Positions 5,371-47,800 of a stretch of 64,000 bases of DNA are shown here, piece by piece. The stretch is from Amoebophrya sp. A120 (lineage: Eukaryota; Protista; Dinoflagellata). The stretch lies in the NCBI GenBank assembly GCA_905178155.1, contig CAJINV010000001.1:2964265-3028264 (forward strand). Direction: 5' to 3'. A model generated the notes under the pieces. That model made no database searches and was not told where the DNA came from. It saw only the letters and a list, made by a program, of their open reading frames with translations. The first letter of the stretch is position 1; the number at the start of each line of letters is the position of its first letter. The position numbers and the translations under genes were made by a program.

Positions 5371-8300
5371 TCATGAAGCAGCCGCAGGTGCCGAGGGAGC
5401 AGCGCTACCACCAGCAGCACCAGTGGACGGACTAGTAGCACCTCCGGGCGCCGCTGCGTTCGCCGCTCCACCACTCGTAGCTGCATTACCGCCTTGCTGC
5501 TGGATCCGGCTGTTAATCCACTGGTCGTTTTGATATTTGCCTCGGATCCGCTGTTCGGTCACGGTGGCCGCTTCCAGCCACCAAGTGTACCGACTGTTTA
5601 GGAACGGGTTTGACTGGATCAGATCTGGGTACGTGCCTCTTCTCCTCTCCATCTTCTCACACCAGATATCCAACGCGTTGCGGAACGTGGGACTTATCCG
5701 CCGGCCGTGGTACAAATCGTGCAGCAAATGCCACACCGCGTCCGACCCGACCATCGTTGCCGGGACGACTTGCGCCTGCTCTAACTCCACCCAGGTGGAA
5801 TGGGAGATTTTCGCGCCCTCGAGAATACGCTTCAAGCTGGTGAAATTGTAATTGACCGTCCTGGTATCGCCGACGACGGACTCGTACAGCGTGTACATCT
5901 GCTCGCGGACCTCCTCGACGAGCAAATCCGGAAGGGTTTCTTCCAACTCGTAGCGGTGGCGAAGTTTCTTGCCCGTGTCTTCATCTTGCAGACGGCGGAG
6001 GATCAGCACAAACTCGCCCCAGCTGTAGTGTTTTTGGGACAATCGAAAGATGAAGATCACGACATCGTCTTGCTTCAACTTGATGCTCATTGACAAAAGT
6101 AGAAAATCAGACGCATACTTAGACGACATTATTCGGTACGTATGTTCCGTTGGCATTCACAGAGCAAGTCAAAGCTTCCTATAAAACCAGAACAGGTCGA
6201 AAAACAAGCAACAACGCAATACTCAGTGCAGCCGTCTTGATCCAGGTCGCATTCCTTAACCAACTCAACCAACGAACGCTGTTCGTCTTGCGTTAAGTCC
6301 ATCCCGAGCTTTTCCAACAGCTCAAACACCTTCTGCGACCGCATTCCCTGGGCGTTTTTCCCGGCAAATTTGTTGAAGCCCGGGCGGATCAAGTCGACTT
6401 CTTCCTTTTTCCAGCCGCCGTTGTCTAACCCCCGCATCCACAACAACCGCGTGATTTCCAGAATCACCACCGCTACTTCAAAGTGCACCTCGGTTTCCGC
6501 ATCCCGGAGGTTCTTCGTTTTGCACAAAGCCCCGGTGAGAGCCGGGATGAGTATCAAATGCAAAAATGTCTGGGTCTGGAAGATTGCGAGATTTGTCATG
6601 CTGATCTGGCATGGCCCTTAAATCTCTATTGCGTGGCCACAAACAGCCTTTCTCCGCGCCTGTCATGCAAAAACGCAGTTTCTCATGCGGAATACGCAGC
6701 ACAGTCACAGAGGCACGAAGCAACTTATCATGCTTGGCGGCGCATTACAGCGCATTTGTTTTTGACTGACTTGCATCACAAGTTTCCAGACCCAGACATT
6801 TTTGCATTTCATAATGAAGTGGATCAAGCCACTGATGTGCTCGCGGACGGTTGGATACCGGATTCGCAAGCACTATGGAAGCGTCAGGTTTGAAATCGTC
6901 AAAGTTGAAATAATCTGTAATGCATAAAATGCATGACCCGAGGCACGTGTGTTGCAGAGCAGGCCAGTGAGGCCGATTGTAAGCCTGTTTGGGGTTACAG
7001 CTCGAGCTGCTGAAGTAGCATGAGAAAATCACTCTTTTTTGCCTAAACAGCATGACAAACTGGATTTAGGGACCACCGAAATTTGTCATGCGCCACTTAG
7101 AAACTGGGTTCCAACTGGCATCCATTTTATGCATGACAAATTATTTCAACTTTGTCGATTTCAACTCTGACACATCCATAAGTACTGCACGATCAGTTTC
7201 TGCAGGTGTTCTATTGGCACCCAGCCGAAGCCGGTCCAGTTCGGGGCGGATAGGAGATTTTCCAGCTCGTCCTTCTGACTGTCGACAGCCGACGCGCTGT
7301 TCATCCGCTGCATAGACATACTCCCTTGCTTACCCTTCCCCTTCATCCCTTTCGGTTGGGGTGTGGGTTGCGGGGTTGGCGGCGGAGGCTGAGCGGGCGC
7401 TGTTCCGTTCGCGTTTGTAGTAACTATGGTGGAAACCACACCGGTTCTGAGCAAAAAGTACATCATGAACTGATCGGAGAGCCAGTTCAGATCTTCTCTT
7501 GGGTACAGCAAAAGCATCTTTTTCCATGTCCACCCGTACTCGGACACGGACCGGAGTTGCTGACTCGCCAGCATTGTGATCTTCCACCGGGAAAGCGCGC
7601 TGCCGAGATTGCCCTTCACCTGCAGTGGCTTTCGCAAACGGAAATTCGCGATCAAAGCGAGTTTCGTGACGGTATTGGTCCCCGGGTGGTTTTCCTCGGC
7701 GCCCGTTGTCTTTTTCGGCTTTCTCGTGCCGTTTTTCTGCACATCCATGGGGGGCGGTTTCGCCGTACTCGGTCCGCCGACGGAGTTAACCCTCTCGTTG
7801 GCCTCGTTCACACTGGCCGGGTTCGGGGGTGGCGGACTGGGCGGGGGTGGCGGTGCGCGACCGCCCAGTAAACCGAACAAACCGCCGCCCGCTGTTGCTG
7901 CCGGAGGCGTTTGCACCGGCTGGTCCTCTTTTTCCTCCAATTCACTGCTGTCGCTGCTTTCGACTTCGTTCTTCAAAACGAAAGACGGGTGCAAGTGCTT
8001 GTTCGCGTGCGCGACGGTTTTATGGGGAGACACGACCGCCTCGATGCCCTGCCATCGGCTGCCTAAAGTCAAACCTTCCTTCTCTCTTTTCCCGACCATG
8101 AGCTCCTTCGCTGCCTTCCGGTACGCCACGAGCAGACTCCGCCCCCACTCAGAGGACTCAACGGTCAGATTGTTGTCTTGGTCTATGTCGATCGGCTTCT
8201 CCACGACTTGCCCGGGTTCCACCGACGGGCCTGTCCTTGGCGGACCGTCCTCGTCCACCTTGGCGGGTGTTGCTGTGCCGGAAGTTTGCGCGGTGGTGTC

Positions 8301-8540
8301 GCCGCCGCCTTGTTGGTCCCCGTTTCCGCCGGGGGATTTCGTGCCGTTCTTTTTCTTCTTCGCCAGCCGCTCGGTCTTCTGGCGCTCCATGTCCGCCACG
8401 AGGCGCTGCGTGGCAAAGTCCGCGATGTCCTGTCGGCTGGCCAGGGGCATTTTCTCCACGAGCTGGATCAAATCTCCCATGCGCGTCCGCACGTACTGAC
8501 CCAACATGTGGGCCTCCTTTTGCTCGGAGGCGGGAGCCAT
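5371..8540 (-). CDS. EF-hand-containing protein, 4 exons (two TIR introns, one GT-AG intron at 6023-6222); paralog of the gene at 10074-12875
   Basis: Removing elements 6874-7180 and 6552-6813 (each plus one TSD) gives ...IVQYLRIRYPTVREHISGLIHFIPALTGAL.... Removing the GT-AG intron gives the EF loop DLDQDGCTDWGE followed by FVLILRRLQD. Confidence 0.8.
6552..6813. mobile_element. TIR introner, family B, 262 bp
   Basis: TIRs tatcaaatgcaaaaatgtctgggtctggaa / ttccagacccagacatttttgcatttcata; flanks atgag/atgaa (4 of 5 match); removal restores the frame. Confidence 0.9.
6874..7180. mobile_element. TIR introner, family C, 307 bp
   Basis: About 60-bp imperfect TIRs (tatggaagcgtcaggtttgaaatcgtcaaagttgaaataat / attatttcaactttgtcgatttcaactctgacacatccata); flanks agcac/agtac; removal restores the frame. 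Confidence 0.9.
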
Positions 8541-8867
8541 GTTGACGTCAGAAGCTAGTAGGGTCGAAACAAATTTAGATCGAGTGAATGATCAGATAAT
8601 TGAATGGGAACAAAAAGACTAGGAAGTTAGTAGCGTCAAGACGAAGTCGTAGATTTCTGAATGTTGCTCATGGGTATTGTGAAGCCAGGGGTACTGACAA
8701 ACACAAGTAGGGTAGCCTGATCCTGTGTTAATTTGAAACGGAAAGCGCTGCGGTCGACTGCAGAAAGCAAAACGTTTCGACTTCACGGGCAGGAACGAAA
8801 ACGCAGGACGAATACGAATTAGCACCAAAGTTCAGGCTCCGCTTTATCGGTTTAATTGCCAAATATA

Positions 8868-9585
8868 GCCGCCGGGGCGGGGGTAGTGAGGTCGTGGGCG
8901 TTTTTTTGCCGGCCGCAGCCTTGGCCGCGGCTTTGCTTTTTACGGGCTCGCCATACCACCGTGAGTAACGTTATGCCGCACGGTATGGCGGCCACTTGGG
9001 AAACGTCGCAAATTTTGCCACATTTCCAAAATTCCTTTCCGAAAGCCAGCCCCGATGCTATGGGGCCGATCCGGGTGCCACGGGGGGCGCCCCAAAAGCG
9101 AACAAAAACCGGGCCCATAGCATGCGGATTGGCTTTGCGCGTCTGGTGCGCTTTTTATTTTTCGCGTTTTTATCTTTCACGCCGGCGCTTTTTGCAAAGC
9201 TTCCCAGGCTCTAAAACCGGCGAAAAGGCGGCCGCTTTCGCGGCCGCCCAAAATGCTCCGAAATCGCGGCCGTGCCATGCTGTTTCGCTGTTCTGATTTT
9301 GGGCGCGTTTCTTGCGCGCCCCTTTTGGGGCGCCCCAAATCGCCAGAAACTAAGGCGGCGGGCGCCTCAGAAGGGCGCCCCTTTTGCCGGCTCCCCTGCG
9401 TCGTTTTATCAAGCGGGAATCGATAGTTTTCGACCGGGCTTTTTTGTTGGCAAAGCTCCGGCCGCTTGATAATTGAAAATCTTTTTCGTCAAAAAACACT
9501 CCCGCCCGCTTGAAAACTGCCGGTCGTTTTGCTGGCTGGGTGTCAAAAAAACTCCCCGGTTAGAACCGTTCGGTGACCTCACTAC
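8868..9585. repeat. Candidate intergenic MITE-like element, rich in homopolymer runs and palindromes
   Basis: 11-bp inverted repeat gtagtgaggtc (8883) / gacctcactac (9575-9585); atata at 8863-8867 and 9586-9590; recurrent gggcgcccc palindromes; composition differs from the flanks. Confidence 0.45.
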
Positions 9586-10073
9586 ATATAATTTCAATTT
9601 GTCGAATGGACGACTACCGACTTCACTGTGCCTGCAAAAATGCAGCACGACGGAGCAACCGTAATCAGGACGGAACGATGATTTTTTTAAAATTATGGGA
9701 CCGACGAATACGAATCCGTCATTGGCATCAAGGTCAACCGAGTGGGACTGAATACTGGCGAAACACGAAAATTGCATGAAAGGGTAACCAGAAACAAGGA
9801 TGGCATAAGCCGCATGCGCACATCCTTGTTGGCGGTATTCAACTCAAAGCCACGATAAAAGTTGATCGGCGTCATCAAAAGTCAATCGCGTTTGTGAGTA
9901 ACCATGAAAGGGGATACCTAGTGCAAGAGAACAAGAAATTATAGAATAAAAATCACGGGTAGGTACAAATGAAATTGTGAATGCGTGCTGATGAAGAGAA
10001 TGAAAACAGCTTTGCGCGGACTCGGCTGAAGACGGAGGTACAACAGCGACTGAAGGGGTTCTTCGTGAGTTTC

Positions 10074-12875
10074 CTACTTTTTCTTCATCTTGCCCATCAT
10101 CTTTGCCGCCATGCTGGCCTTCTTCATCAACGCCGTGCCCTTTTTGGTATAGTTCGCCTTTTCGCTCTCCCGGGCCTCCCTTTCCATGGTGCGCTGGATT
10201 TCCTTGCCCTTCATCCTTGCGGCGAGCCAGTTTCTCTTGCGGATACTCTTCATCATCGCACCGATGATCTTACGCGCGTCGTGGACCCAGGCGGAGCTCG
10301 CCAGGTACTTTCGGAACTTAGTTTCGTCCATCATGATGTGCCTGTCGGACCTGAGGTTGTGTTATTTCACGACGTTTTCGTATAATAATATAATTAGTCC
10401 GTTTGGCGTAGTATATTCTTTTACACGACCAGCTTCAAAAAACAAAGAGACACCACAACAGATCAACTACGCGAAAGAGAAAGTATACCACATATCCACG
10501 TGCTCTTTCATAGTTGTCGGTCTGATTTCCTGCGGAATCGGCACATCCTCCAAGCCCTTCTCAATCACCGGTGGCGGTTTCGAAGCCAAGTACTTCGCCC
10601 ATTCTAACAGTAAATCGTCGTGCTCGTCGTACACCCTTGCCATCAACCGGCACGCTTGTTCCCGATCAAAGTCCGACGGGAGTTGCAGTTCCAACCGACT
10701 TAATTCCAGCCGCTGGACCACCTTCCGCAGGTTTTCGAAATCGAAGGAGGAGCAGATCGTGCGTAAATCGAACAAGTTGTACATCTGGACGATATCGTGG
10801 TCGGTCGCTTTTGGTTCCGCGTCCATCTCCAATAAGTATTGCCACTCCTCGACGAAGACCGGAGGTAAGTGTTTCACGTGCGTGTTGCACTGGACCATCT
10901 GCGTGGTTAACCGCTTGTCTTGGAACCTTCTCAAAATGTAGAGCAATTCCTTGAAGTCAATAAACCCATTCGCGTCCTGATCGCACTGCCGGTAGAGCAT
11001 CGCGAGGAGCGCCCGCTCTTCGGGTAGAAGGACAAAACCTGCTTTTTCCAAGACATCGAAAATCCTCTCCGCCCTCAACCCGCCGGACTCCATCTCGTCC
11101 ATGTCGAAACTGTTGAAGATTTCGGATAATTCGCCTGTTTCCGCCGCGTCGAAGCCGCAGTTTTCCGCGTACTGCAGCCAGTAGAGCCGGGAGACCTCGA
11201 GGACGACGCAAGCGACTTCGTACGGAACCCTGCGGATGCAGGACCGGACTGCGGAGGGGGTTTCGCTGAACACGATTCGCAGCACGTCCTGGAACATGTC
11301 CGTTTTGAAGCACTGCAACGGGGAAAGGAGGTCCGCTTTCGGGTAGAGCATACGGAGGTAAAGTGGTATCCAGCTGCTCAGCGTCGACAAGTCCATCCAC
11401 GCGTAACTTAATTTTTCCGCGTCTTCCGTCGCGCCGTGGCGTTGAAGTTGGTCCAGTTGCGAGATGTAGTTGCAAATGAAAAAATCCGCAACGAGGTTGA
11501 GCTGAAAGGAGTTGAAAAGGGATTGCAGTCGTGACCACAAATCCTGGTACTTCAGGAAGCTCGATTGTTGCCCCGCGGCCAAGCTGACCCGCTGCCATCG
11601 CGTGATTTTCTCCTGAGTAAGGACCCCGAGCGGATCCTCGAAAATTCCACACACGTAGTCCGCGCGGTCCAGTGGCGGCTCCATCAGGGTCGGATCGGGC
11701 AGTTCTTTCATCTTCGGTTGCTCCTCACCCCCGTCCTGCGGGTTCTCCGCCTGTTTATTGTCCTTGTCCTTCTTGGATTTTTTCTTCTTGTTTGGATCTT
11801 TCTCCTTGCCCGGTCCTTTTTCCCCGGTAGTTGCTCCTGTATTCGCTGCGTCTATGTTGCCTTCCGCATCCGCCGGCTGGTCCGTCAAATGCCCGAACTC
11901 TGCTTGTGATGCGCGAAGCTCCCGCTCGATCTGGTCTTCCAGCGTCTCGGCGCGCTGGTGGTTTTCAACATCCGCGAACGATATCCGCTTGGACTTTTTC
12001 GGCGTTCCACTGCTCGCGCCGGACTCGGACTCGCTGCCTGAGGACGACTCCTCTACCTCTTCCGGCTTTTTCATCGCTCGGCTCAGGGTCGCCCACTCGG
12101 AAAGATTCGAGCCCGTAACTTTGCTCTTGCCGAACAACTCCACAGAGGAAGTGACCGGCGCGACCCCTGCGTTCAAAGCCCGCTCTTGGAGTTCGGACAA
12201 AGACACGCCTTCCGGCAAGCCCAGCGAGTCTTTGTTCCCCCCGATGGAATAGTAGCTGTCCATCAAACTGCTCGCCGCCAGTGCCCGATTGTGTTCGGAG
12301 TCGAACGCGTTTCCGCCGGCCTTGCTGAGAAATTCGAAATTCACAATCAAGTTCAGTTCTTTCACTGTCACCGCGGAAAGATGGGTTCTGTCCTCCATAT
12401 CGGCGGCTTCATCGTCGTCTTGCCGCTCCGTCCGTCTCGTCATGAAACCGCCGGCCGCTTGGCGCAGAGCGACAACCGCCGCGACGCCCTTCCACTGCCC
12501 GCGATGGCTCCAGCCGGCGACCCGGCGCAAAGCCTCGTCCCGCCCGTTGTGCACGTCTTTGTAGCCTAAGAGCAAGTCCCGTCGCCACTGCATGTCGAAA
12601 TACTCAATGGCGCGAACCAGCTGTTTCTCCTGCTCCAGGTCCTCCGCCGCGCCGAGCGCGCGGAGTTTTTCTTCCCGCTCCCGTTCCAATCTGCGGATGT
12701 AGGACCGTGCTTCCGGGACCAAGATGCGAAATCTCTTGCCGTCCTCGTCGATCGAAAATAACTCAAACTGCTCCTCGGACCGGATGCCATTCTTGATCGC
12801 CTCTTTGCGGTCGCGTAAAAACCCGAGAACCTCGAGGTCCTCACGGACGAACCCACGACCGCGGCGGCGCGACAT
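10074..12875 (-). CDS. EF-hand-containing protein; long exon plus a basic terminal exon
   Basis: 802-aa ORF with the EF loop DQDANGFIDFKE. A GT-AG intron joins HVDMW to SDRHIMMDETKF... (ORF 10074..10334). Confidence 0.8.
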
Positions 12876-13687
12876 GCTGGGCGGTGGAAATTATACAGGC
12901 TTTTGGGAGGTTTCTTGTACCTGTTACGGGACGCAAAATGGAGTGAATGCGATGTATGTATTTGTTTTTCGGTGAAATAGAAACGCAAATGTGAAATAAC
13001 TGAGTACAACTATAGATTACTTTTACTGCCCAAAAAACTCTCGTCGCTGGGGTACAGCCTTGGCGAGGTGTTTGAGGCTTGATAGCGATAGCCCGAAAAA
13101 GATTCGGCTCAACAATGGGTTGCGGTGTTGTTAAATCGGAGTACGGGTTTGCAACAAAGCTGCTGCGGGAGAAGAATTTAAAGTTTCAGAAGTTGAAGTT
13201 CACGGCTGTTACAACTACCATCTAAGCTTTATAGTTGACGTGCACAATGACACATCATCATCAATTGCGTATCGGACGAAGGATAGAACGAACAAAACGA
13301 GAACGAGAGGAAGCAACAGAACGACAAAGATACCGATTGTAGCATGTGCTGGACGATTCATACGATATTCGCTTGCGCAGCATAGATATGCACGTACAGT
13401 AGCGAATGCGAAATTAATATAAATATCACTATCAGCTGGGAGAGGGAGTGCAATACCAGCTGCCATTGATTGAACGAGGCATATATCTATGCGACCGACG
13501 TTTATATTCTGTTTTGCACATAACGGAACACAGGCGGGAAAGGAACGGCTACCTTGCTCGACGAGCAAGCTCAACAAGTAGGAGCATTTATCATTTACAG
13601 TTTTGCAGAGCCACCTCCACCTGATTGTGCAAATACAAAGAGTTGCAGTTGAGGTTTATTGCGTTTTGTCTGTTCAAAGGAGATGCG

Positions 13688-14800
13688 TTACCACATCGCT
13701 TTTCTCGGCCTGACTTTTTCCGTGAACCCATTTTCGTAGGCCTCCTTTCGGTAGTGGTAACCCGCTCTCGGCCCAGTCCCGGTTTCTGCGTCGATGAACA
13801 ACGTTCGGTTCTGCAAGGCGAACTTCCCGGCGGATTCCTGCAAAATCTTCTTCGCCGTGTCGTGACTATCGAACTCGATGTAGCAGAAGCCCTTGCTCCG
13901 CCCCTGCTCGTGGCCGACGCGGACGGTTTTCACCTTGGGTTCCCCGCCGAAGCATTCGGCGATTTCCGCCTCCGTGGCGGTGTAGGGAAGGTTCTTCACG
14001 AAAAGCGTTTTGCTGGACTCTGGCAATGATTTCTTCTTTCCATCTGCTGCGTTACTAACTGTTGACTGCTTCACCTCGTTTGCGGTTTTCGCTTCCAAAT
14101 ACCGTTTGCTGTTCGGCGGCGTGAACCAATGTAACTTCTTGATCGCCATTTTTGCGTTCTTTTCCGTGTCGAATTCCACGTGGCAGTACCCGCGCAGCCG
14201 CCCGGTGTCTTGCCAGGTTGGTGCGCGAATCTCGCCGAAGCCCTTACATGCCTGCTTCGTCAAGAGATTTTTGATCTTGTCCAAATCCCACACATAGGGG
14301 AGGCCAGAGATGAAAACCGTCCTCGGCGCGGCTTGCTTCGACGCTTCCTGGGAAAGCCGCTCGGTGTAGGGGAGGTCCTTACTAGGGTCGAAGTCTTCGT
14401 TGAAAGAGGTTTTTTCTGTGTTGGTGGCGTCACTTTGTGCAGCTCCGGTGCTGTCTGGCATTTCTGCATCAGATGATGCCTCATCGTCCTCATCGTGTTC
14501 GTCGGCGGTTGTTTGTTCTGGCGCAGGAGCGACCTTGTTGAGAGCCTTGTCTTTCAGCTTTTTCGCTAGTTGCGCCGTCGCGTCCTTCTTAGAAACAGTG
14601 GATTTCTTCACTTTTTTCTTCTTCTTCACCTTTTCCACGGAGGGAGCGGGCTCCGTTTCAGAAACTTTCGTTTTCCTTGTCGCTGCATCCGATTCCTGAT
14701 AGTCGGCTTGACGCGCAACGACAGCGTGGTCTGCTGCCTTGCTAGACGTCTTTTTCACTTTCTTTTTCATTTTTTTGGGTAGGTCACCAGTCATTTTCAT
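13688..14800 (-). CDS. Nucleolar-type RNA-binding protein with two RRMs (nucleolin/Nop13/RBM34-like)
   Basis: Lys-rich and acidic N-terminus; RNP2/RNP1 motifs VFISGL...RGYCHVEF and LFVKNL...KGFCYIEF. Confidence 0.9.
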   Translation of the reverse strand: MKMTGDLPKKMKKKVKKTSSKAADHAVVARQADYQESDAATRKTKVSETEPAPSVEKVKKKKKVKKSTVSKKDATAQLAKKLKDKALNKVAPAPEQTTADEHDEDDEASSDAEMPDSTGAAQSDATNTEKTSFNEDFDPSKDLPYTERLSQEASKQAAPRTVFISGLPYVWDLDKIKNLLTKQACKGFGEIRAPTWQDTGRLRGYCHVEFDTEKNAKMAIKKLHWFTPPNSKRYLEAKTANEVKQSTVSNAADGKKKSLPESSKTLFVKNLPYTATEAEIAECFGGEPKVKTVRVGHEQGRSKGFCYIEFDSHDTAKKILQESAGKFALQNRTLFIDAETGTGPRAGYHYRKEAYENGFTEKVRPRKAMW

Positions 14801-17261: not shown

Positions 17262-18230
17262 CTATATTCTCTGATTCACCGGCGAAAGTGATCTCGACAT
17301 CTTGGCGTTTTTATTCCTGACACTTTCTCTCTGCCGGCTCACAAATTGCGACTCCGGGATCCAAAACCGTTCTGGATCGTTTCGCTTCACCTCGGCGTGC
17401 GGGTACCGGATGCGCATGAAGTTTTGAAAGGTCTGCAGCCTTTTTTTCTCGGGGAAGGTCATATCCGCGAAGATTTGCTGCCTGAACATTTGGTGAAACA
17501 GCATGTCCTTCGGCCACACGTCGGATTTGCGGAAACCCTCGGGATGCGGGTCGTTGTCAGACTCGATCGCTTCCTCGTAAAAATTATCCAGGAAAAAACA
17601 CCCATCCCCATCCAATTTGTCACGCAAAACATGCATAAAATCCACTATTTGTCATGCACAAAATGGATGGGGATGGGTGTTTTTTCCTGGATAAAAATCC
17701 TTCGGAAGGTTCTCGATGGCTTTCAGCGTACTTTCCTCCAGAAGTTGTTTCTTCTTAGCGAGTAGTTCCTCGTGCTTCCTCAGATGCGACAAGTAGATCC
17801 GTCGCTCCTTCTCGTACTCTTCCCGATCCGCCTCGCTGTCGTTTGGCGCCGCTGGGCTGTAGATCAACTGCAGCAGGTTTTTCACATTTTTCTCTCGTCG
17901 AAGAAAACTGGTGGTCAGTGCGACGAGCTCGCCGGGGAGAAAGGGGAGCAGTTTGATGAGGGTGGAAGCTTTTTCCTTTTGCGCTTTCACTTTCACGAAG
18001 CTGAAACTTCTGGATTGGAGGTGATGTTCGTGTTGTAGTTGGGTCTCCGCAGTTTTTCTTGTTGCCGACATTGGCTGGAGGACGGGCACCAAAGACGTGC
18101 GCGTGCAAGCTGCACCATAGCTATGGACGAGGACGCTTCGGCTGGAGCTCGAAGACCCTCCGGAGACGAATAGCCCGACAGCACGCGCACGCAGTGTAGG
18201 TACGACGCTCGTTGCCATGGCACGCGACAT
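17262..18230 (-). CDS. Mitochondrion-targeted protein, probable mitoribosomal mL40-like; split by a TIR intron
   Basis: R/S/A-rich presequence ending RSFS. The joined sequence LLEESTLKAIENLPKDFYEEAIE resembles the mL40 helix. The frame is restored by removing 17585-17693 plus one TSD. Confidence 0.6.
17585..17693. mobile_element. TIR introner, family E, 109 bp
   Basis: TIRs tatccaggaaaaaacacccatccccatcca / tggatggggatgggtgttttttcctggata; perfect TSD aaaat; has an in-frame stop if retained. Confidence 0.92.
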
Positions 18231-18612: not shown

Positions 18613-21600
18613 TCACATCCCTGAATCCAGCACGGACGTCAGCAAATGCTGCGCCTTCCCGCCAACCCGGTCGCTGGTCGGGAATCGTTGCATGACCTTC
18701 ATCACGAAACTCACCGCCAGTTCGCGCTCCGACTGCTTTTTCTCCTCCTCTTCTTCTTCGTCAAACAAGCCTATTCCGCCCATCGGCTCGTCCTGTTTTT
18801 CCAGCGATTTCCGCTTCAACTCGTTGCTGGCAAAGGCGTTGGCGCACGCGGCGACGAGGGACTGGGAAAGGACGCGCTGGACACTGGAGTCGATGGCGAG
18901 CAGGTGGAGAACGGCGTTGAGAACCGTGGCCGTGTATTCCTCGTGGAGGCTTTCACGAATAGAGTCGATCTGGAGGTGAGATGAAGTATGTATTTTCATG
19001 TTCGGTAAGAAAAAAATCATGTGCATGGCAAAAACGAACGCCCCACGTCCTCCATGCAAATGCAATGGCACACAAAATGGAATAAGCTACTTACGAGCGG
19101 AGACACAAACATGTTTATGGCGCATTGACAAAACTATACCAGAACAGCCACCAACATCACCACCAACGGTGTTTCTTTCCCAGGATTCCAGTACGACAGC
19201 CTCGCGATCGCGCGCAACACCTCCATCTCGACCGCGAGTGGAAGCAAGTTCGGAATCTTCTTTTTCCCACCACCTCCTCCAGCTCCGATCTGCGCCTCGC
19301 TTTCGTAGTGCTGCAGAACTGACAAACACAGTCCGATGCTGCTGGCCTGGTCGAACAGCGCGGCGAGCGTGCGTCGCAGCCGACTCTGGAGGTCCAGTGA
19401 AGGGAGTTTCTGGTGCAGGTCGACCAAATTCGTCACGATGGTCAGGCGGAATTTGTTCTGCGACTCCAGATTGCTGTTGCGACTGCTCGCTGGAGCGCCG
19501 GAATGATGCAGAAATTCTGTTTCCTCGACGAAAAAGTCGCTTTCCTCCATGGCTGAGCAAGCCAATTCGACGAAAAACGGATTTTTCTTCGATTCGACGA
19601 AGTGCACGAGCGAGAAGAGACAGATCTCGGAACTCTTTTTCAACAGAACCTTCATGCAGTCCTGCGCGACCAGGGTGAGACTCTCTGTTAGCAGGTTATG
19701 GGGCTCTCAAACGTTACATTCTCAACTGTTACATGATTTGTCATGCAAAAACGCTATCACTTCTCACAATTTCAAACCTTCTCCGCATGACAAGTTCTCG
19801 ACGCGCTAGATAGCACTGTAATCTATTCCAAACCTGTAATGCAAAAGGCGCAACCCTCTCCCTTTCACTATTGCCATTCTTGCATTGCAAATTTATGTAA
19901 CAGTTGAGAATGTAACATTTGAGAACACCATACAGGTCGGCAGGGACTTCGAAAAGTTCAAACAGCCGGTCCATAAACCCCAGTGCAATCAAGTGGTCAG
20001 GAACTACACTGGTCGTGGGCAGCTGCGTTGGAGTACTTCTATTTGGTGCAGCTTCTTCATCTGCGTCTGGTCCTGCGGCCCCCGCTTTGCTGATCCTGCT
20101 GGTTGCGTCCCAGTGGTCCAGCATGGTCCTGACAATCTCCAGACTGCTCTTATGGCGTTCTCAAACGTTACATTCTCAACTGTTACATGATTTGTCATGC
20201 AAAAACGCTATCACTATTCACACAACCAAGCCTTCTTTGCAAGACAACTTCTCGACGCGCTAAATAGCACTATAATCCGTCCCAAATCTGTAATGCAAAA
20301 GGCGCAATCTTCCTCCTTTCACTTTTGCCACTCTAGCATTGCAAATTCATGTAACAGTTGAGAATGTAACAGTTGAGAACGCCATAGCTCTCCAGCACGG
20401 GCCACCACTTCGTCGGCAGTTTCAGTTCGTGGAGCGCGATATCAACTGTAAAAATGTCTGGGTCTGGAAGGATGCAAGATTTGTGATGCAGGTTTTTCAT
20501 GACCCATGAGGTCTGGAATGCGAGACCCAGCATGTCAGATTCTTTGAGGTCTCTATCATGCCTTTCCTGCATGAGAAACTCCCTCTCAACTTGGTCAAAA
20601 GCGGACACCTTTTGGTACTCACGCAACACAGATTTTTGCATCATTCAGATTTGGCATGACAAGTTCTAATCTTCCAGACCCAGACATTTTTACATTTGAT
20701 ACGCGAGGAGAAATGGTTCGACAGCAGTTGAACGTGAGAGCCTCGGGCAATATTCGCGATTGATTTCATCTTCCTCCTCCTCCTCATTGTCACCGGGGGA
20801 AAGTGATTCTCTCAGAACTCGAAACTGCATGACCCCGTAGGGCAAATCGTCCTTCTCGCATTGGTCTACGCATTCGAGCACAGCTTCAAACAACTCCAGC
20901 AGCTTCTGAATTACCATCGCGGAATCCAGTTTCAACACCTGCAGGCGAAAAGTCCCCGCACTCATTCGCGGCAGTGCGACGGCCCAGAGGAGAAGGTTCT
21001 CGGTTACTCGGGTCGTGTAGGAGGAGGCGGTGGAAGTAGGTGCCTTGCTGTCCAGAACGACTAGGGCAGACGCCCATGCGTAAAGGTCAGAATACAGCTC
21101 GTCTGATGTCTCTGTCGGTGCGGGAAAAAGCGAACTGGCCGCTGTTTTGTTTGTTTTTTGCTTCCGAGCGGTGCGCGTTTTTTCAGAAATAGGAACGAAT
21201 AAAACGGTAAGAAAGTTTTCAGTATCGTGGAGCTTCAAACTTTGAGTTTCAGGTTTCAGTCTCTAAGAAAAAAGAACTTTTTACCACTTGCTTCCGCATG
21301 CTGTACGCGTGCTGCAGCACCAGCGCCGGTCTGCAATAGAATTGTCGGCGCAGCAGCTGCTGCGCGCTCCACTTCTGGACTGAGGAACAAAACTCGCAAC
21401 GTCAGTTGGCTGTCCTGGAATAGCTTGTCTAAGATGCGCAGGCACCCAGCTTCCGCTTCCGCAAAGTGTGGCTGGCCCGACACAAAGGCCGCGAGTATCT
21501 GCGGACCCGCGAGGCCGACGAAAACGCTTGGGGACAAAAAACCCGTTTTCAGCAGGTCATCGAGCGTCTCGACCACGATTCGCTTGATCGAAGCGATGAC

Positions 21601-24934: not shown

Positions 24935-26107
24935 CTACAACAACGTGCCAGCGTACTCCAGTTTCGCGAAAGTCCTCTGCCACCAGGGAGTCGCTTTTTC
25001 CACGTCCCGTTTTACAAAGGTGGATCCGACTTTTCTCGTCGCCAAATTCATCCACTGCACGATGAAACGGTCGCACACGGGCCGCAAAATCCTCCCCGTG
25101 AGGGATATCGACTGCGTCCGCGCGAACGACTCCACGAAAATCAAGCGCAAGTGTATGGCGTTCTCAAACGTTACATTCTTAACTGTTACATGATTTGTCA
25201 TGCGAAACTACCATGAGCCACCAGACGATCAAGCTACGTCGCATAACAAATTCCCGAAGGGCTAAACAGCGCCTAAATCTGTGCCAAATTTGTGATGCGA
25301 GAGCTGTAAGCTTGTCCCTTTCACTGCTGCGGTTCTTGCATGACAAATCCATGTAACAGTTGAGAATGTAACAGTTGAGAACGCCATAAAGTGCTGCTGC
25401 TGAGTCGCCTTACTATTTGCGGTCGCTCCTTTACAGTTGTGCAACCCGAGCATTTCGAAGAACAAGGCAGAGAAAACCACGGGAATGCAAACTCCAGGTC
25501 CGTTAACGAGTAAGAGGTGAGATTGGCGAAACACTGGAACCTTATACCATAACCAGAGGCATTGAAGACTGCTGGCAAAGGTGTTCCACGCACTGCTCAC
25601 CCAACCCTCGCCGACTTGCCGACTGCGCCGGATGCGGTACAGGTGCACGAGCTTTTTAGTGGTCGACGTGGGATCAGCATTTATTTGCTGTTCATCTACT
25701 TCAGGTTTATCTTTGCGTTTGCCGTCTATTCCCTTATTATTTCCCCTTTCGTTTATTCCATCCTGCACCACGGTAAATCCGTGGCGAGTGAGCAGTTTGA
25801 CGCAATACGGGTCGGAGCTTGTGGCGATGAAATGGAACTGAAACAGTGTGGGGTCGAAGCCGTCCACCAGCTGCAGTAGCTCCGATGTGTGCCCCCCACT
25901 GCCCAGCACCGCGACGCAATCGACTTTGTCCTTCCCGCCGGATTTTGCGCGGTTAGTTTTCGATGGTGGGAGGGGAATGCGGCCGATTTTGCAGACGCGA
26001 CGGAGGAAAAAACGACTGACGCGCAGCAGGAAAAGAAGCAGAGTGATCAGTAGCGCCGTGGCAACCGCCTTCAATTCCGTCTCGTACGAAGAGAGGTAAG
26101 ACGACAT
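24935..26107 (-). CDS. ALG14: UDP-N-acetylglucosamine transferase subunit ALG14; split by a TIR intron
   Basis: N-terminal TM segment and motifs VLGSGGHTSE, RIRRSRQVGE and LLVNGPGVCIP. After element removal it continues into IFVESFARTQSISLTGRIL...DRFIVQW. Confidence 0.95.
25154..25388. mobile_element. TIR introner, family A, 235 bp
   Basis: tatggcgttctcaa ... ttgagaacgccata; perfect TSD aagtg; in-frame stop if retained. Confidence 0.95.
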
Positions 26108-31379: not shown

Positions 31380-31384
31380 TAATT

Positions 31385-32118
31385 TACCAAACGAAAAAAT
31401 GGGCCACAGCCAAACTTTCAAAATTTTGTTTTTCCGATTAAGATGACCAATGTGAGTTCTCGAGATGGAGCACTTCTGCCAGTGCGTATTTTCCCAGGCC
31501 GGGGCGAGGATCACGGGTTGGCGGGCCTGCAGATGGCCTCCACCTCCGACGTCGCACCACGGTAATATCGGCGACCTATTGAAGTCAAGTACTCTCCATC
31601 TGACCTGCCTGATGGCAAGACTATTGCTGGCTTCTCGGTCGGAACTCCAGGAGAGACATCTGGGCATCACTGAAGGCACCCCCCTTCACGGGGTGCTTTC
31701 AGGGGGTGCCCTTCGTTGCTGTGGCAGATTTTTCGGAAACGGCCATACCATCGGTGGAAGGGGTTTCCGAAAAATCGGCCACAGCAGCACAAGGCAGTCA
31801 ATTTCGTGGCACCCCTCTGTCCTGTGGCCGATTTTTCGGAAGTGGGCGGCTTCTGCAGGGAAAACGCCGAGAATCAGCTCGCATGGCCCCCCCGCCGGCG
31901 CAGCTTTTCCCAGCCGGGCAGCGCCATAACCCAACGCCCCGCCTGGCCGAGGGTTGCAGAGGATAGCGCAGAGCCGCTTTGGCTGCGGCCTGCCAACGAT
32001 TGCCGCCTACCGATATGCGCCTCTTCCACCGCGGGAATCCGTCGGCCCCGGGCCTGCGGGCCGGCCCGTCCGGGAAAAATTTTGAAAATTTGGCTGTGGC
32101 CCATTTTTTCGTTTGGTA
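31385..32118. mobile_element. 734-bp TIR element (MITE/introner, family F)
   Basis: About 43-bp TIRs taccaaacgaaaaaatgggccacagccaaactttcaaaatttt / aaaattttgaaaatttggctgtggcccattttttcgtttggta; perfect TSD taatt; internal hairpins. Confidence 0.9.
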
Positions 32119-32173
32119 TAATTGATAAGAATGAGTCACGTCCTCGCTTGTAGACAAACTGCATTCATCATCA

Positions 32174-35100
32174 TCATGTACTGGGCTCATTTTCGCTTGC
32201 GGAGTAGGCCCAGAAGTCCTTGTTTTTTTTCCCGAATTTTTTGTTGTCGATCTTGTTCTCTAAGGCCAGCCAACAATCCGTCTTCGCCGCTTTCGTTACC
32301 GCCAACGAGCCTTCATGTTTAATACATCCGGAACTACCGACACCTCCCACCTTGGAACCGATCTTGCTATCAACAACTGCACTCAACCCGCCGGCGGCGC
32401 TCTGGCCGATGGTACCGTACTTACTCGTCATTTGGGACAAAGAAGCAAGCTCCTTCGAGTTGGTTCGTTTTTTCATCTCCACATCCTGGTAGCCTCCACC
32501 ACCCCCGCAGGAGGGCAGCTTCAGTTCGCTCATTTCTTCCAGCGAAGTCGTTCCCGGCAGCACTTCCGCCATCGGCTCCAACGTCCAAGACTGCGAGTGT
32601 TTCAGCGAGGAAAAAATCCCTTTCTTGATGTCCGATTCGTCGCTACCTTTCCCGTGCTTTTTCTCGATCGGAGACCGGCGGCGCTCGATGGGGAGCTTTA
32701 ATTTGGGTCCGTCCATGATGCGGTCCGCGATCTTTTTGATGCGCGAAACACTGCTGTTCATCTTGTCGGTATCCAAATCCTCGAGGCAAGATCCATCCTC
32801 AAGCGGGTTCTCGTCGTTATTGCGGCTCAGCAATCGGTCATTTTCATCCATCTGCATTTCCATGTCATTTTTGTTGTCCTCTGCAACTTCCGGCAGCTGT
32901 TCATTTTCCGTAATGTTGATGTTTAGGAGATCATCAGCGCCCTCCGAGGTTGTAAGAGCGTCGTTTTGTTGATCCTCTTCTTTGGCTGAGCAAGACGCGT
33001 CTGCTTGCAGCTCCTTCTTACTGTTCTTCTTGTCTGAGGACTTGTCGGAGCAAAGCTTTTTCTTTTCCGCTGCAGCTTCAGTGTCTGCCACTTCCGTGTC
33101 TTCAGAAGTGCTTTTCATCGTGGTCGTGGTGGTGACGGTGGAAGAAGATCTCCCGGATGTGACTGTCGGGACAAGAGAAGTCGGTTTGGACAGCAGAGCC
33201 AGAGCCTTACTCTTTTTCGCCTTTTTACCGCTCAACTTTTTGTTCATCGTCGTGTGGACTTGTTGATTGGTGCGGCTTGCGGTTCTGCTACAACTAGTAG
33301 TACCGGTTATTTGCTGTTCTTCATCATCTTGCTCCTCCGCGACTCGATCGAGATCCTTTTTGTTCGCAACACCTCCGATTATAACCCCGCCCTGCAGATC
33401 AGCAGAACAAGAAGGCATGACGACGGCCACGGGAGCTCCTGCCACGTCAAGGATCGGCGACACGTCTTCGGTCAAATGCTCGACCAGGTCAATCAGAGAA
33501 TTTTCGTGGATCGAAGAAACGTCACCAAACTTCTCTTTCTGGATCTGCTCCCGCCGCGGAGACGCCTTCTTTTTCTCCTGCGACTGCAAAGTTTCAGTTT
33601 CCACAGTGCTGGTATCTTGACCATCCCCGTTGACCAGAGGACCACTCGGACCACGACCATTTTGGTCTTGTACTTCGCCGTCTTTGTTCAACAATACATG
33701 CTTACTCCCCGTCTTGTCCGCTGTCGTAGCCATCGTTGTGTCAACGTCGTCGAATTCCGGTTGTTGCTTCGAGGAGGTTCTCGATCGGGCCGCGGGCATC
33801 ACCGCGTGCGTACTGACGTCCGGCTGGTGGGCCGGGGTCGCTTCGAGGTCCTGTAAAACATCTTCCGCAGATGAACAATGCTTCGTAGGAGTACCACCAG
33901 TCTGTGTAGTAGTTCCCTGCTTCTCTTTTTCCGGCGACGAGGCATAAAAATTACTGTTCATCGCGTGCAGCAGTGGCCCAGCGGTGGAAGTCGAGAGCCT
34001 TTTGGTGCGATTGTGGCAGGACGCCGGGGTGAGGCCGAAGGTGTTGGTGGTGGTTATGGCTTTCTCAACTGTTACGTTCTCAACTGTAACACGATTTGTC
34101 ATGCAAAAGCAGCATCATCATCCTCACGATCAAGCTGCTCCGCATGACAAACTTGCGAAGGGCTAAACCGCGCCTAAATCTGTGCCGAATTTGTAATGCT
34201 ACAGGTGCAACCTTCCCCCTTTCCCTTCTCCCAATTTTGCATCGCAAGTTCATTTAACAGTTGAGAGTGTAACATTTGAGAACGCCATAGTGGTCGTGGT
34301 GAGGCAACTGGTATCGGTGTCCGGCATGTCCGTGGTGCTGTCGTCGGTGTTGTCGGTGCTGGAGTCGTACTGCAGCGAGCTGTCGTGCTCGTATTCGTTG
34401 ATATCATTCACGATATTGCTGTATTGCGGAACAGCAGCAGCGGCCGCACCAGGAGTTGCTGCTGGCTGAGCAGAAGCATGATCTGCAGCAGAGGCAACAT
34501 TTCCTTCGCCAGTAGCGGAAAATTCGCACGTCGACCCCGTTTTCTCGCCCCCGACGTTAGCGGGCAGTCTTTCTTCTTGGTTAGGTGATTCGTTTTTTGG
34601 TTTCCCGTGGTCACCATCGCATTTATTGTCCATGTTGTTTTCCTTCTTTTTATTTCCGATCGAGCTGTTCTGCGCCGCATTGCAGTTCTGCTCCTGGTTG
34701 TCCTCCTGAAACACTGGTGCGCCGCCCACAGTCCCGGACGACACCGCCTGCTTTGATGCACCGTCTCCGGCAAGAGATGAAGCGACGGCGTTAATCTGGC
34801 TCGTCACGCGGCCAATTGTGCTGCCATTCTTAGTAGTACCCGAAGTAGATGAGCCGGAGCCCACTTTCGAGTTCGAACGCTTGCTGTTTTTCGCAGTCGA
34901 AGTAGAAGTCGTCGAGCCCCCACGACGCCCTTGTTTGCCGCTATTGTTTGAAGACGTTGTTAGGCTCGTAGTTCCGGAAGTGTCACCGAGCGGCGGTGCC
35001 TTCAGTGACTTCTGCACGGTTTCCGCGTCAACCCAGGCCACCTTGTTCACCAGAAAATAACTGGAGAAACAGCAATACAGGTAGCGAAACCAGACCAGCT

Positions 35101-41878: not shown

Positions 41879-44800
41879 CTACTCCTCGTCCTCTTCCTTA
41901 ATTTGTTCCAACGTTTCCTCCGGCGTGTAGGCCAGCAGCGGGTCCATATTGCGGCCGCGGATCCAGCGATAAAGGTCGTGGCGCTGCGTGAAAATCGCGT
42001 TACTCAGCATGTCCGGGGCCTGCGCAATTTGCTCTTGCAAGCTCACGTGCGAAGACTCGTCGAGATCCTGCTTCGGAGGGTGGTAGTTCGCGGGCATGCG
42101 GACTTGGTCCGTGATGTTGCGCCGGTCCGGAATTTGGGGGTCACTGGTTTTTGTTTTTTCAATTTGGTAAAAACTACGGTGAGACTTCTGAGAAGAAGAT
42201 CCTCGCTATGTAGATCATCTTGCAACACGGGCACTTCTATCGATCTAGCAGGAACAAGAAGCAGCAGACCGCCACCGGGTGCTTGAAAAGAGTGAGTTCA
42301 AGTACTTTCTCTGCCTCGCCGCAGCGTAAACGTGGTTTCTCTCCAGAGGTGGCCGCTTCGGAATGCGATACAGTACCTCCTCCCCCTCGATCGCGTTCTC
42401 GGGCGCGGGAACCTCGTGGTGCCGGCCATTGTGTTCGAACCGTAACAGCGTTTGCTTCGTGCAATTGGGCGGGACTGTTAACCGCACCCGCGAGCCCTCT
42501 CGCTCCATTTCATCCAGCAAATAGAGCATGGTATCGTGCTGCGCAATGCTCGGCTCCCCGGGCTCGGGGACCTTGTCTCTTTCTCGCTGCAAGCGTTCGT
42601 TGACGGCGGCTAACGCTAGCGCATCGTGGTCCAGGTCACCGCTGGTAGTGGTGCCGCTGCCACCCATCATGTCGTTATTCCCGTTCGGCGCAGCTGACGA
42701 AGCACCAGACCCGCTACTCTGGTTGTTTCCCCTCTGGTGCAGTGCGCCGAGCGGCCCTCGTTGCGAATTTGACGAGCTGGAGGATGAGGCACCAGCTCCT
42801 CCCTGCAAGCCGCGTGTAGTACCTCCTAGAAGGCTCGGCATTGTCAGCCCTGTTGGGGGTAGAAGCTGGAAGGAAGAGGTAGATGAGGCGGAAGCGGATC
42901 CCTGCTGTGCAGTACCCTGGGCGGCCTCTTTCCCCTTTAGTGACTGGAAGCTTGGTCCTTCATCTGCAGTTTTGTAAATCCACTTTCATCAGCATTTTGG
43001 CAACGCAGTTCTTCACTTCAGTACTGCGTCAGTATGTTCAAAATGAAAGTAAAAATTTGCAAAAAAAAAGTTCCCGAATGAAAAATGAATTATACCAGCC
43101 GGCTCCGCATCTCCCTTATCCTTCATCTCCATCTTTCTTTCGTTCTCCAGCTGCTGCATACTTGGCACGAGCGACATTCGCCGCGGCGGCGTGTTTTGTT
43201 CCTTCTTCGGCGACCACTCCCGGTCGATTGGCTGGGTTAAGTCTAGCTTGTCCACCACCGTTTCCGTCACCCGCGGCGGCGTCGAATGTTTCACGTCGGG
43301 CGAGCAAGAGTGATCCGTAGTTCCGGCAGGTGGCGGCGGCGGCGCGGGCCGGTCGGCGAAGGTCGCCTTCGCGACATTCTCCCGGCTGGTATCCAAATCC
43401 TCTTGCGTACACGCCTCTGTGGGCACGAACTGCGCACGGACACGCTTCACCGAAGTTGCATCGTGATGTAGCCCGCTCCTGGTTCTACTCGTCGGCTCAC
43501 GGGACAGTGGTCTGGTTGCGGCTTGTATGCGTGCTAGTTCCTCCTGGGTCGTGCTCATCGCACTGCTGGTGCTGATTTTGTTCGTCGTCTGCACCACGAC
43601 AGACGGGAGGACAGAGGGAGCTGCAGCAGCATGATCTTCCGCTGACTTGTTACTCCCGAGAGGACCCCGAGCAGACGGAAGATTGTTGTTCCCCACCTCT
43701 TCGATGGTAGTCGAGGCAGATTGCGGCACGATTCCCCCTCGCCCGCGCTGGATCACCTCGCTTCTTGAGAGCGAGGAGGAGGGCTGCGACAAAGAGGAAG
43801 ACACGTTGGAGCCGACGACTGAGGACTCCGTGGGTGAAGCAGCAGTGCCGCCTATGTTTGGCGGCCGGTCGGGGGCAGGCGGAAGAAAACCTGCTCCCGA
43901 GGAAGATGTTGAGCTGGAAGATGGTGTTGCGCCCGGGCGCCGGGCGGGCGGCTTCGAGGTCCCGTAGGTGGTGCGCGGCGGTCCTGAATGATCCAATTTA
44001 TTGGTGACAGCCGAGGAGGAACCGTTTGGAATTGGGTCAGCGGGATCTTCGTCGACAATGAACTCGTCCTCGTCGCTGGAAATAGGTGGTGGCGGCGGGG
44101 CCGAGCGACGGTTGGAGGTCGAATACTGTTCCTCATCGGCTGCATTTGCCACCTGGTTTATTGGCAAGACCTGCTGCATGCATGTATGTACTAGTGCTAC
44201 CAGAACCAGTGTAAATTATAGTATGAGAACATATGCTTATGCATATCCGGAACAACTTCTGATGTTGGTTACTTGACTACGAAATTTTTAGTTTTACCTG
44301 TGAACTGTATGCGCTCCTGGAAGGCGCGACGCTCTGCCGCGCTCCAGCTCTGGGATACGGATACGACCCTTGAAAGGACTGCGACATCGCCCGCGGTGGC
44401 GGACTGCTACCGCTGATCGCCCCGACCTCGCTGCTCGACGAGCCACTTGCACCACTGCTACTCCCCGGGTTGCTGCTTCTCCGCACCCCGGAATCCCGTT
44501 TCAGCGGCGCGCCATTTTCGACGTCGTAGAGTTCGGCCTTCAGCTGCTTGTTCTCTTGCAGCGCTGCTTCCAACACGGCGCAGAGTTGGAGCTGTATGGC
44601 GTTCTCAAACGTTACGTTCTCAACTCTTACATGATTTGTCATGCATACCCGACTGCACCACATCAAAAACCTTTGCACCGTCGCCGCAAGCAGCTTCGGA
44701 CGCAGGAGATCTAGGGTCAGAACCGCGAAAAACATCGCGCGTATTTCTTCTTCATATTACATGATTTGTCATGCAAAATCACAATTAGAATTGATATGAT

Positions 44801-47800
44801 ACGATCAAGCTGCTCCGCATGACAAATTCTCGAAGAGCCAAACAGGCTGAGAATCTGTGCCAAATCTGTCATGCCAAGCGCGCAAGGTCACCCCTTTGAC
44901 TTTTGCCATTCTTGCATCGCAAACTCATGCAACAGTTGAGAATGTAACAGTTGAGAACGCCATAAGCTGGAACTTCGTGTTGTAGGTGAAGTACTCGCGC
45001 AGAAACACGTCGTAGGTATATGACAGTGCACAACTCCCCCTCCCCCTCATTTGTCATGCAAAATACCCAATTTACCCTTTGTTTTCCTCTTAGCACTGTT
45101 TGCATGACAAGTTTTGGTAGCCCAAATAGCACTATAATCCAGTGCAAATTTGTATTTGTCATGCAAAACCAGCATTCTTTCTGATGCTTGTATTGCCGTT
45201 GATGCTATACAAATGAGGGGGAGGGGGACGGGGAGTTGTGCACCGTTATAAGGTAATGTTCGGATCGTGAAGAAAGGCCCGGTCGCTTTCGTTTTCCTCC
45301 AGTTCCACATGGTAGTTTTCTCGAATCTCGCGCCATTTTGAATGCGTGCGGTCGTCCAACTTCAGCACGATGTCCCGCAGACCCTCGGGCGCAATCTGCT
45401 GCTGCATCCGCGCGTCCAGCTCGATAGACCGCCGACGATTCGCGATGGTGTGGTCCACCACGGCAGGAGCAGCATTACTGTCGACCGGCCTGCTGCTGCG
45501 AGCTCCGGAGCCCCGTCTCCGGACGTGGTTGTTGGAGTTGCGGTTTTGACTGCGCAGGAGCGCCTCCGCGGCTTCCGCGGTGGGCGACGCGTTCGCGGAC
45601 GCCAGCGGCGTAGCTGCCGAAGACGAGGGGGAATTCAAGCCTCGGGAGTTTCGGGCTAGAGGCTGGCGCCCTCCACTCGCCCTCCCAGTGCTGTTGCCCG
45701 ACTGCTCCGTGGGCCGCTGTTGTAGTTTGCATCAAGAAATTCGATCAGAATCAATGTGTTTTTGTTCCCAGCTCAAATACTAGACACGCAAATAGCCCCT
45801 GGGCGACATCAGTCTGAATAATCACAAGTACCCGATTCGGTGGTGGAGGTTTCCGCCCTGTTGGCGCATCTCGCGACGCGGCCGCCGCCCTCGCCGCGTT
45901 CAATCTATCGACCATGTGCCAGACGCGGCCAAGACCCCCGCCCGGAGGAAGTGGTTCGCACAATTTGTCTATGTCAGCTTCGTCGACACGACCAGAATAC
46001 AGTTCTTCCTGCCTGCTTGCCCGAGCCTCGCGCTCCCGCATTTCCGCGTCTATTTCCTCTCGCAACTCCCGTCTGCTGTTTTGCAACGAATCGTAGTGAG
46101 AAACAGGCACAACACCGGCAGCCGCGCCCGCCTCTTCCTCCGCACCTGCTGCCCCGCGCCCGCTGCTCCGACCGCTGTTCCGCGTACTACTCGTGGTCCC
46201 GACGCCCTTCCCGTGCTGTCGAAAATCCTCGATGTTTTGAATTTGATCACTCTTCCCACTATTTCTCGTCGCATCCCCGCTCGGTAAAGTGTCACTGGTT
46301 TGCGACCTGGACGCCGACAGTGTGCGCTCTACTTTCGACCGCTTTTTTTCCTTTTTGTCTTTCTTCGATTTCTTCGCTGGAATCATACTACTGGCATCCT
46401 CCCTAGAATGATCAGCAGAGGAAGTCAAGGACGTCATCGCCGAATGAAGGGTTTGTTGTTGATGCTGTGGGGGAGCTGCAAATCCGCCCTGCACTGTAGC
46501 GTGCAGCCTGCTAGTACTCGAAGAGGACCCGCCGACCTGGTGCTGCGGTGATGGTGCCCCTTGCAGGTGGAGCTGTGATGTAGTAGTCGCTAGCATGCCT
46601 TGATCATGTTCTCGAGGTGGGGACCGAGCGACGTTCGGACCAAGATCTTGGAGCGTAGGCCGTGCGTAGGAAGGGGAAGAGGTCGGCAGCAGCGACGGAC
46701 TTTCTGCCCGTGGTTGAGAAGTCGCTCGTGCGTGTTTGTCGCTCGAAGTTCTACTTGCGGTATTTAAGTGGAGTCGACCTGATGTGATGTCGTTTTTCAT
46801 AATTTTTAAAAAGGTTCAGGGTTTTCTCGAAGAAAAACGGAAATGACGCCAGCACTACCCAAAAGACCATCGAAAAAGTGCACTTCGCTTTACGAAAGCA
46901 AGAAAACGGTTCGCACCTGTGCTCAGCTGGAGTCCAAAGGGCGCTTGCAATTGGCACGGCGACGTGTTCAATGCGTGTTGGTGCTGCTGGATGTCGATCG
47001 AAGTGGGCGACACTGCGCCCGGTCGCGAGAGCCCCGCTCCGGGAAAGACATTCAACCGCGTGGCGCCCCCCGCTGGCTGGGCAATTACCCTACCGATCGC
47101 GCTCTCCCCGCGATCCACGCTCCATCCGCGCTGCTGCGCAGCAGACAGGTTTGCGGCCCCCGCGCCGCCAAGCTGGGCCCCCGAAGTGGCTGCGTTGTTG
47201 GTCGCTCCTGCACTGGGACCAAAGGCGGTTCTGCCTCTGCTGCTGCTCGTGCTGGCGTTATTGTTCCCGGAATCTTGGTGCTGTGCGCCGACAACTGCAC
47301 CACCCGCCCGACTTCTGTCCGAGGGTGCAAACCCAAAGCTGGAAGCCGTCTGGTTCTCGTCAACTGTTGGTGTAGAAGGCGAAAACGCCGGAACCTCCGC
47401 ACTTCCACCACCACGACGCGAAGATGAAACTGCTAGAGAATGCTTGCTAAACGGATTAGCTGTAGCGGTCTTCAACCCCTGCAGGGTTGGGATCTGTAGG
47501 CCTGCGCCTGCGGGTGGGCGGTGCGCCAAAAAGGCATTTCCGGCAGAATATGAAAACAGAAAACGGATCTGGGCGAGGTTCTTAGTGTAGAAAGGCACGA
47601 AGTTGCTCTTGCGCATGACGCCTGTAACATCTTCGGTAGATGATAATCTTGCGTGACTCCTACAAAAGGTTCTTTGGATGATTCCCATCCTATGTTAAAG
47701 CAGTAGTCTGTTTCTGCACTTTCATTGAAAATTAAAAATGCCGCATCGTTTTTCATTTTACCAAAGGATAGCTTGAAACCGCTTGTAGTTCCACCACCGG

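Follow-up and report, generated by a model that had tools for sequence, protein, structure and literature searches.

Repeated introns that resemble transposable elements are already known from Amoebophrya sp. A120, in which more than 60% of the introns are non-canonical and 29,850 repeated ones have been sorted into 1,954 families (Farhat 2021, PMC7789003; statements on published work refer throughout to the parts of each source that were available to us). As described there, the inverted repeats (IRs) of these introns are 8-20 nt long and consist of TAT, seven variable bases and a run of at least three A; the introns measure about 240 nt, are likened to miniature inverted-repeat transposable elements (MITEs) and carry direct repeats of 3-5 nt, with one 5-bp example in a figure, and their border is given as unknown. 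Introner families of A25 start with TTA (PMC7789003), and two reviews repeat the picture of variable direct repeats (PMC11282704, PMC11453091). Here we describe eleven elements of this kind in a 64,000-nt stretch of A120 DNA (contig CAJINV010000001.1, positions 2,964,265-3,028,264, forward strand), called the window below and numbered from its first letter. They come from the same organism and share with the published elements the TAT-started IR, a direct repeat within the 3-5 nt range, removal without GT-AG ends and the presence of repeated copies. The elements are members of the published A120 introner-element system, and the original prediction for this stretch was right to call the class already reported, as the TAT start, a 5-bp example and the MITE idea are all found in Farhat 2021. 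They differ from that description in their terminal inverted repeats (TIRs) of 27-62 nt, in a repeat that is uniformly 5 nt and flush with TAY..RTA ends, in a shared internal box and in their occurrence in both orientations. It is likely that they are non-autonomous DNA transposons lodged in coding frames and removed, together with one repeat copy, by hairpin-guided splicing.

A second survey treats 58 A120 families, most of them classed as TIR DNA elements and 56 assigned to an 'Unknown' superfamily, with automatically called target-site duplications (TSDs) of 2-11 bp or none, and of 5 bp in 7 of the 58 (Gozashti 2025, PMC12130899). Its family 38 is given as a TIR DNA element with '5-bp TSD, TA/TA Termini' and homology of the long terminal repeat (LTR)-integrase type; the table enters it as Ginger, but the text says that it lacks the Ginger termini and TSD. 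This family shares TIRs, a 5-bp TSD and TA/TA ends with the window elements, as compared by its table description and not by its sequence. One further A120 family is Mutator-like, with GG/CC ends and a TSD of 8-9 bp (PMC12130899).

An inverted-repeat scan of the window, in which no end motif was assumed, recovered all eleven elements at the starts that had been predicted and bore out the six TIR types (A to F; no strand is assigned). Type A comprises 6552..6813, with 30-nt arms and forming an intron of the minus-strand gene P0015, and 20440..20701. Type B is represented by 6874..7180 (62-nt arms) and type C by 17585..17693 (109 nt). Type D has five copies, at 19697..19932, 20151..20386 (88% identical to the first), 25154..25388, 34055..34289 and 44595..44964, the last with about 130 extra nt at its left; the four copies of equal length are 76-88% identical. 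Type E is the 734-nt element 31385..32118, and type F is 45019..45250, whose interior is related to that of type D. Types D and A (two copies) are thus repeated within the window; the type of 31385 was not seen to be repeated. Ten elements have TAT..ATA ends and 31385 alone has TAC..GTA, in agreement with the TAT/TAC starts and ATA/GTA ends that had been claimed. The claim of a 5-bp direct repeat at each element held in full for nine of them; at 6552 and 6874 the repeat matches at four of five positions. The repeat is flush with both ends, and none longer fits. With thresholds of at least 16/20 for the TIR and 4/5 for the repeat, 11 candidates are obtained from the window and none from any of 20 Markov resamples.

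When an element is deleted together with 5 nt, a minus-strand frame of 45 codons or more lies open to either side of all eleven junctions, and retention introduces one to seven in-frame stops at every site; both observations agree with the prediction. The frame test is weak alone, because it fixes the length only modulo 3 (removal of element plus 2 nt does equally well at 8 of the 11 junctions) and because deletion of an insertion with one TSD always restores the old frame. The same result would therefore be obtained from plain MITE insertions that had killed their genes, the fused frame being the pre-insertion sequence recreated, and most of the host genes have no Pfam match. Such an origin in dead genes is extremely improbable, and for the elements covered by contigs it is already largely refuted: the elements are missing from transcript-like contigs, and the genes for ALG14 and RPB1 carry elements with their conserved frames intact.

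The transcript-like contigs come from a comparison of four sequencing runs (X1, X3, X6 and X9) over window positions 5900-25890, and the figures given here apply to the contigs and joints listed; X3 and X6 are presumed to be RNA and are not on record as such. Contig 11 of X3 skips 114 nt at element 17585, which equals its 109 nt plus 5, and contig 13 skips 240 nt at element 25154 (235 plus 5). From 19692 to 21284, contig 12 falls 892 nt short of the genome, which equals 749 nt for the elements 19697, 20151 and 20440, each with 5 nt, plus 143 nt for a GT-AG intron. This canonical intron (21142..21284, minus strand, inferred) lies in the same gene as the three elements and serves there as an internal control. 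The expectation that transcripts skip the element plus 5 nt is in this way borne out for two elements directly and for three by sum. Two further introns, each with a GT-AG register, are skipped in X6 contigs, and the depth of X3 is zero in 9902-13236. Since X3 and X6 are not on record as RNA, their contigs might in principle represent DNA from which the elements had been excised, by a programmed process or by somatic transposition. This is very hard to credit, given that the X3 and X6 contigs skip GT-AG introns too, and that contigs of X1, a run with even coverage and so probably DNA, continue for 24-29 nt inside the ends of each of the seven covered elements, with no branching at the junction. 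The depth of X1 spikes over the elements. X9, a raw RNA run under the same species label, covers no exon in 5900-25890 and gives no junction evidence; its reads match the element end 20615-20701 and the intergenic stretch 9470-9531 with other flanks, and a divergent strain may have these families too.

Two window proteins are 100% identical to public A120 models, and both involve elements. The ALG14 gene (24938..26107, minus strand, 310 aa) equals model CAD7923567.1 only if element 25154 is removed with 5 nt. The exon adjoining the element matches this 310-aa protein at 100%; the element splits the Pfam Alg14 domain, with positions 48-122 before it and 124-166 after it, and among removal lengths from -1 to +8 only +5 reproduces the model (P0001). 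ALG14 orthologs from A25 and AT5 align, but the element sits at a variable loop, where +2 and +5 are not discriminated. The host gene of 6552 and 6874 (P0015; 5374..8540, minus strand, 796 aa) equals model CAD7923561.1, which fits +5 only at both elements when lengths 0 to 8 are tried. The model retains the upstream repeat copy at both of these mismatched repeats, and the mismatch at 6874 puts the 5' cut 3 nt or more inside that copy, next to the base of the stem, in what is one informative gene model. Since transcript alignments were used to build the A120 gene models (PMC7789003, section 25), the fit of these models amounts to indirect RNA evidence.

A sample from outside the window was obtained with a 20-mer of the type A TIR, which gave 149 loci (0.48 Mb, all on contigs JACKZZ01...) out of an estimated 530 or so in the collection; as they were selected through type A, family proportions in them are biased. 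A scan without end motifs found the longest flanking repeat to be 5 nt in 134 of 475 inverted-repeat candidates (control 1.6%), many of the others being cross-pairs between copies, and 127 of the 134 have TAT..ATA ends. With ends defined without reference to the repeat, a perfect 5-mer flanks 219 of 334 candidates (control 0.11%), at least four of five positions match in 255, and perfect 3-, 4- and 6-mers flank 8, 3 and 1. Rough clustering divides the 255 elements into about 19 end types. The composition of the TSD is near background, and no pattern was seen in the positions of repeat mismatches in 11 oriented cases. Of 510 ends, a sample weighted to one family, 88-95% have A at positions 11-13, and the A-run is weak in window types B, D and F. 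The claim that one end rule covers all families stands for the window and for these 255 elements; it is not genome-wide, because A120 also has the family with GG/CC ends and an 8-9 bp TSD, and A25 has families that start with TTA.

One of these loci, L074, carries a gene for the largest subunit of RNA polymerase II with several elements (2036-2297 and 3059-4030; also seen in L072). At the two elements tested, the RPB1 exons joined by removal of the element with 5 nt meet at consecutive residues of yeast RPB1, 830/831 and 1068/1069, which, as judged by homology, fixes the removal with single-residue precision in an essential gene. Transcript-like contigs, public gene models and RPB1 homology together support the seamless removal of the element with one repeat copy, as originally proposed. 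In another locus (L065, 3991-5021) elements are nested, and the inner one, 4319-4598, is flanked by a repeat of 8 nt and not of 5. In L070 a TIR-like candidate of 6.2 kb was dropped, as by eye it is a cross-pair of inner palindromic ends. No Pfam match was found in a 1.1-kb element in L018, and a search of viral contigs with two TIR patterns gave no match for either.

The TIRs, otherwise different in sequence, have a subterminal box in common. The box TTGTCATGC, for example at 6593..6601 on the plus strand, is matched exactly at 19 places in the window, every one of them within an element; 10 of the 11 elements carry it, 31385 lacks it, and the 60.8 kb outside have no match. With one mismatch allowed, it is present in 252 of the 255 other elements, at offsets of 32-33 or 40-43 from an end, with the consensus TTGTSATGC. 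In 44595-44964 a second left-end box lies within the extra 130 nt or so, pointing to a copy that is composite or in part duplicated. Subterminal boxes in several copies are a typical feature of hAT elements. A box common to such different TIRs could also be read as a signal by the splicing machinery or by an RNA-binding protein, with the TIR types being unrelated transposons selected for it. We regard this as decidedly unlikely: the box is seen on either strand and, at fixed offsets, at either end of the elements, as DNA-binding sites do, and 31385 obeys the frame rule without it.

Among 23 pairs of related neighbouring copies in the other loci, 13 are in opposite and 10 in the same orientation, and both orientations are found relative to the sense inferred from open reading frames (ORFs), a noisy measure. 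Cut registers that would give GT/GC/GA-AG or AT-AC are possible in none of the 11 window elements, and in 7-8 of 88 other elements as against 10.6 +/- 2.8 after shuffling, so that they are no commoner than chance. MITE introners of Micromonas and Aureococcus are likewise non-autonomous TIR elements turned introns, but their canonical sites arise from element plus TSD, in contrast with 0/11 here and the chance level elsewhere. The annotated ends of the 9,716 introns of fam2, the largest family of Gozashti 2025, are NT at the 5' side in 69%, AN at the 3' side in 68% and TA in 2-4% (PMC12130899, supplement file 8). If two of the six registers that are equivalent for TAT..ATA plus 5 nt were used equally often, 63%, 63% and 1% would be expected, and the fam2 counts thus fit two of six registers, a choice probably made by the aligner. 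On folding, all 11 window elements form terminal stems, with z from -5.6 to -14.6 against 30 mononucleotide shuffles. In the nonconventional introns of euglenids and the TIR/TSD introns of Fritillaria, a TIR stem also joins the intron ends, with TSD-like repeats at the junctions and non-GT-AG ends (PMC11282704). The geometry of stem and repeat is alike, whereas end motifs and lineages differ; Fritillaria prefers AG-AC/AT ends, and the TSD of the window elements imposes no fixed dinucleotide.

With the same transposon origin, the elements might be cut out by a protein-only endonuclease that reads the stem and be sealed by a ligase, as in tRNA splicing or in the IRE1 system, rather than by the spliceosome. 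No canonical register occurs in the window elements and there is no excess of one elsewhere, both orientations are found, and U1 was not detected in A120 (PMC7789003), all of which would suit such an enzyme. Yet A120 is reported to have U2, U4, U5, U6 and 83 of 89 spliceosomal proteins (PMC7789003), and in the window canonical and non-canonical introns share the same genes, which makes protein-only removal rather unlikely. A U1-less spliceosome is slightly favoured as the removing enzyme.

The preferred reading, transposons removed by hairpin-guided splicing, would involve two steps. In the first, a cut-and-paste DDE transposase would make a cut with a 5-nt stagger and little target preference, giving the 5-bp TSD; it would probably read the TAT-N7-AAA end and the shared TTGTSATGC box, in which case a single mobiliser would serve most TIR types. 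In the second, the TIRs would pair in the pre-mRNA as a long stem, in either orientation, bringing the two TSD copies together, and a U2/U5/U6 spliceosome, reported without U1, would cut both copies at matching positions; matching cuts would restore the original exon in any register.

Anatomy gives good support to an origin as non-autonomous DNA transposons, the elements being short, bounded by TIRs, flanked by a constant TSD and devoid of coding capacity. Several observations nevertheless weigh against parts of this reading. No transposase was found by Pfam in the three ORFs of the 734-nt element 31385, nor in 140 scanned of the 194 long ORFs of the outside loci or in seven long candidates; Farhat 2021 also found no transposase in A120 and argued against general mobilisation by one (PMC7789003), and no empty orthologous site was seen at the DNA level. 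IS3EU and GingerRoot elements, whose termini these elements resemble, have a TSD of 6 bp as against 5 here (1 versus 219 of the 334 outside candidates), and no transposase of theirs was seen. Among the contigs listed, none spans 6552 or 6874; X3 and X6 are only guessed to be RNA, and the four elements beyond 26 kb (31385, 34055, 44595 and 45019) have frame evidence alone. The cut register is read from one gene model. In the outside loci 79 of the 334 candidates match at fewer than four of five repeat positions, many of them by eye inner TIR matches or cross-pairs, and the frame test there is noisy, a frame of at least 66 codons being open to either side in 99-100 of 196 cases after removal of +2, +5 or +8 and in 52-58 for the other classes. 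All six window copies of types D and F face the same way, which speaks, in a small sample, against blindness to orientation. The stem z-scores follow by construction from the TIRs and show no function.

As to the mobiliser, IS3EU/GingerRoot elements have TA..TA termini, 6-bp TSDs and TIRs longer than 30 bp, and IS3EU families of rusts end in TAYGG..CCRTA (PMC10045372, PMC12730594). The TA..TA ends are shared with the window elements, and six of the eleven have TAYGG..CCRTA; no occurrence of IS3EU/GingerRoot as introns is reported in the available parts of those two papers. The elements work like an IS3EU/Ginger-type MITE, yet fail the 6-bp TSD test of IS3EU. The hAT5 group of hAT elements has a 5-bp TSD (PMC12730594), a likeness in TSD length, and no hAT transposase was seen here. 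An integrase-type mobiliser, IS3EU/GingerRoot- or Ginger-like, is plausible at somewhat less than even chance, a mobiliser of some other type equally so, and a hAT5-like one is unlikely. We tentatively put forward, as a proposal that is more doubtful than not, that most A120 introner families form one superfamily, moved by a single integrase-type transposase (TAY..RTA ends, 5-bp TSD, TTGTSATGC box) and removed by the host with one TSD in a manner that would be blind to orientation, free of sequence requirements and measured from the base of the stem.

Some other features of the window may be mentioned. An intergenic high-copy repeat lies at 8890-9590, with an X1 depth of 3,500-5,600 as against about 28 and a hairpin at 9042-9136; it has an 81% match at L072 168-448 and was missed by the TAY/5-bp scan, indicating a different repeat family. 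At 48457-48968 a weak AT-rich inverted repeat starts with TATA and has no 5-nt flanking repeat, and is possibly due to chance or a decayed element. All eleven host frames and all Pfam-matched ORFs of the window (1-64000; ALG14, RRM, EF-hand, PIG-L and LIM) are on the minus strand, forming a co-oriented gene cluster. A search for homologs of the host gene of 6552 and 6874 returned the A120 model only, a representative search with the exon beside 45019 gave one weak 28% match and no gene model, and an Rfam search of the window had no matches.

The class and the organism are already published, and the refinement lies in the uniformity of the ends. A literature search did not find a 5-bp geometry that is uniform from one end type to the next, the common box (not searched by its letters), the two orientations, the chance-level canonical registers or the cut placed by mismatches; part of this may already be shown in Roy et al. 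2023 and in supplementary figures S19-S25 of Farhat 2021. The searches returned no paper on Amoebophrya and IS3EU, and none from 2022 onwards on a mechanism of hairpin intron splicing in Amoebophrya. The core finding is not new, and the refinements matter to specialists. The fixed geometry N5-TAY..RTA-N5, with element plus 5 nt removed, offers a simple rule by which about two-thirds of the A120 introns can be annotated, and explains the scatter of the reported splice dinucleotides. The shared box is a handle for finding the missing transposase, and naturally mismatched repeats would reveal the cut register in RNA-seq data that already exist, making splicing in a U1-less cell testable. If most families do form one superfamily with removal measured from the stem, the published 'great diversity of splice motifs' would be an artefact of six equivalent cut registers.

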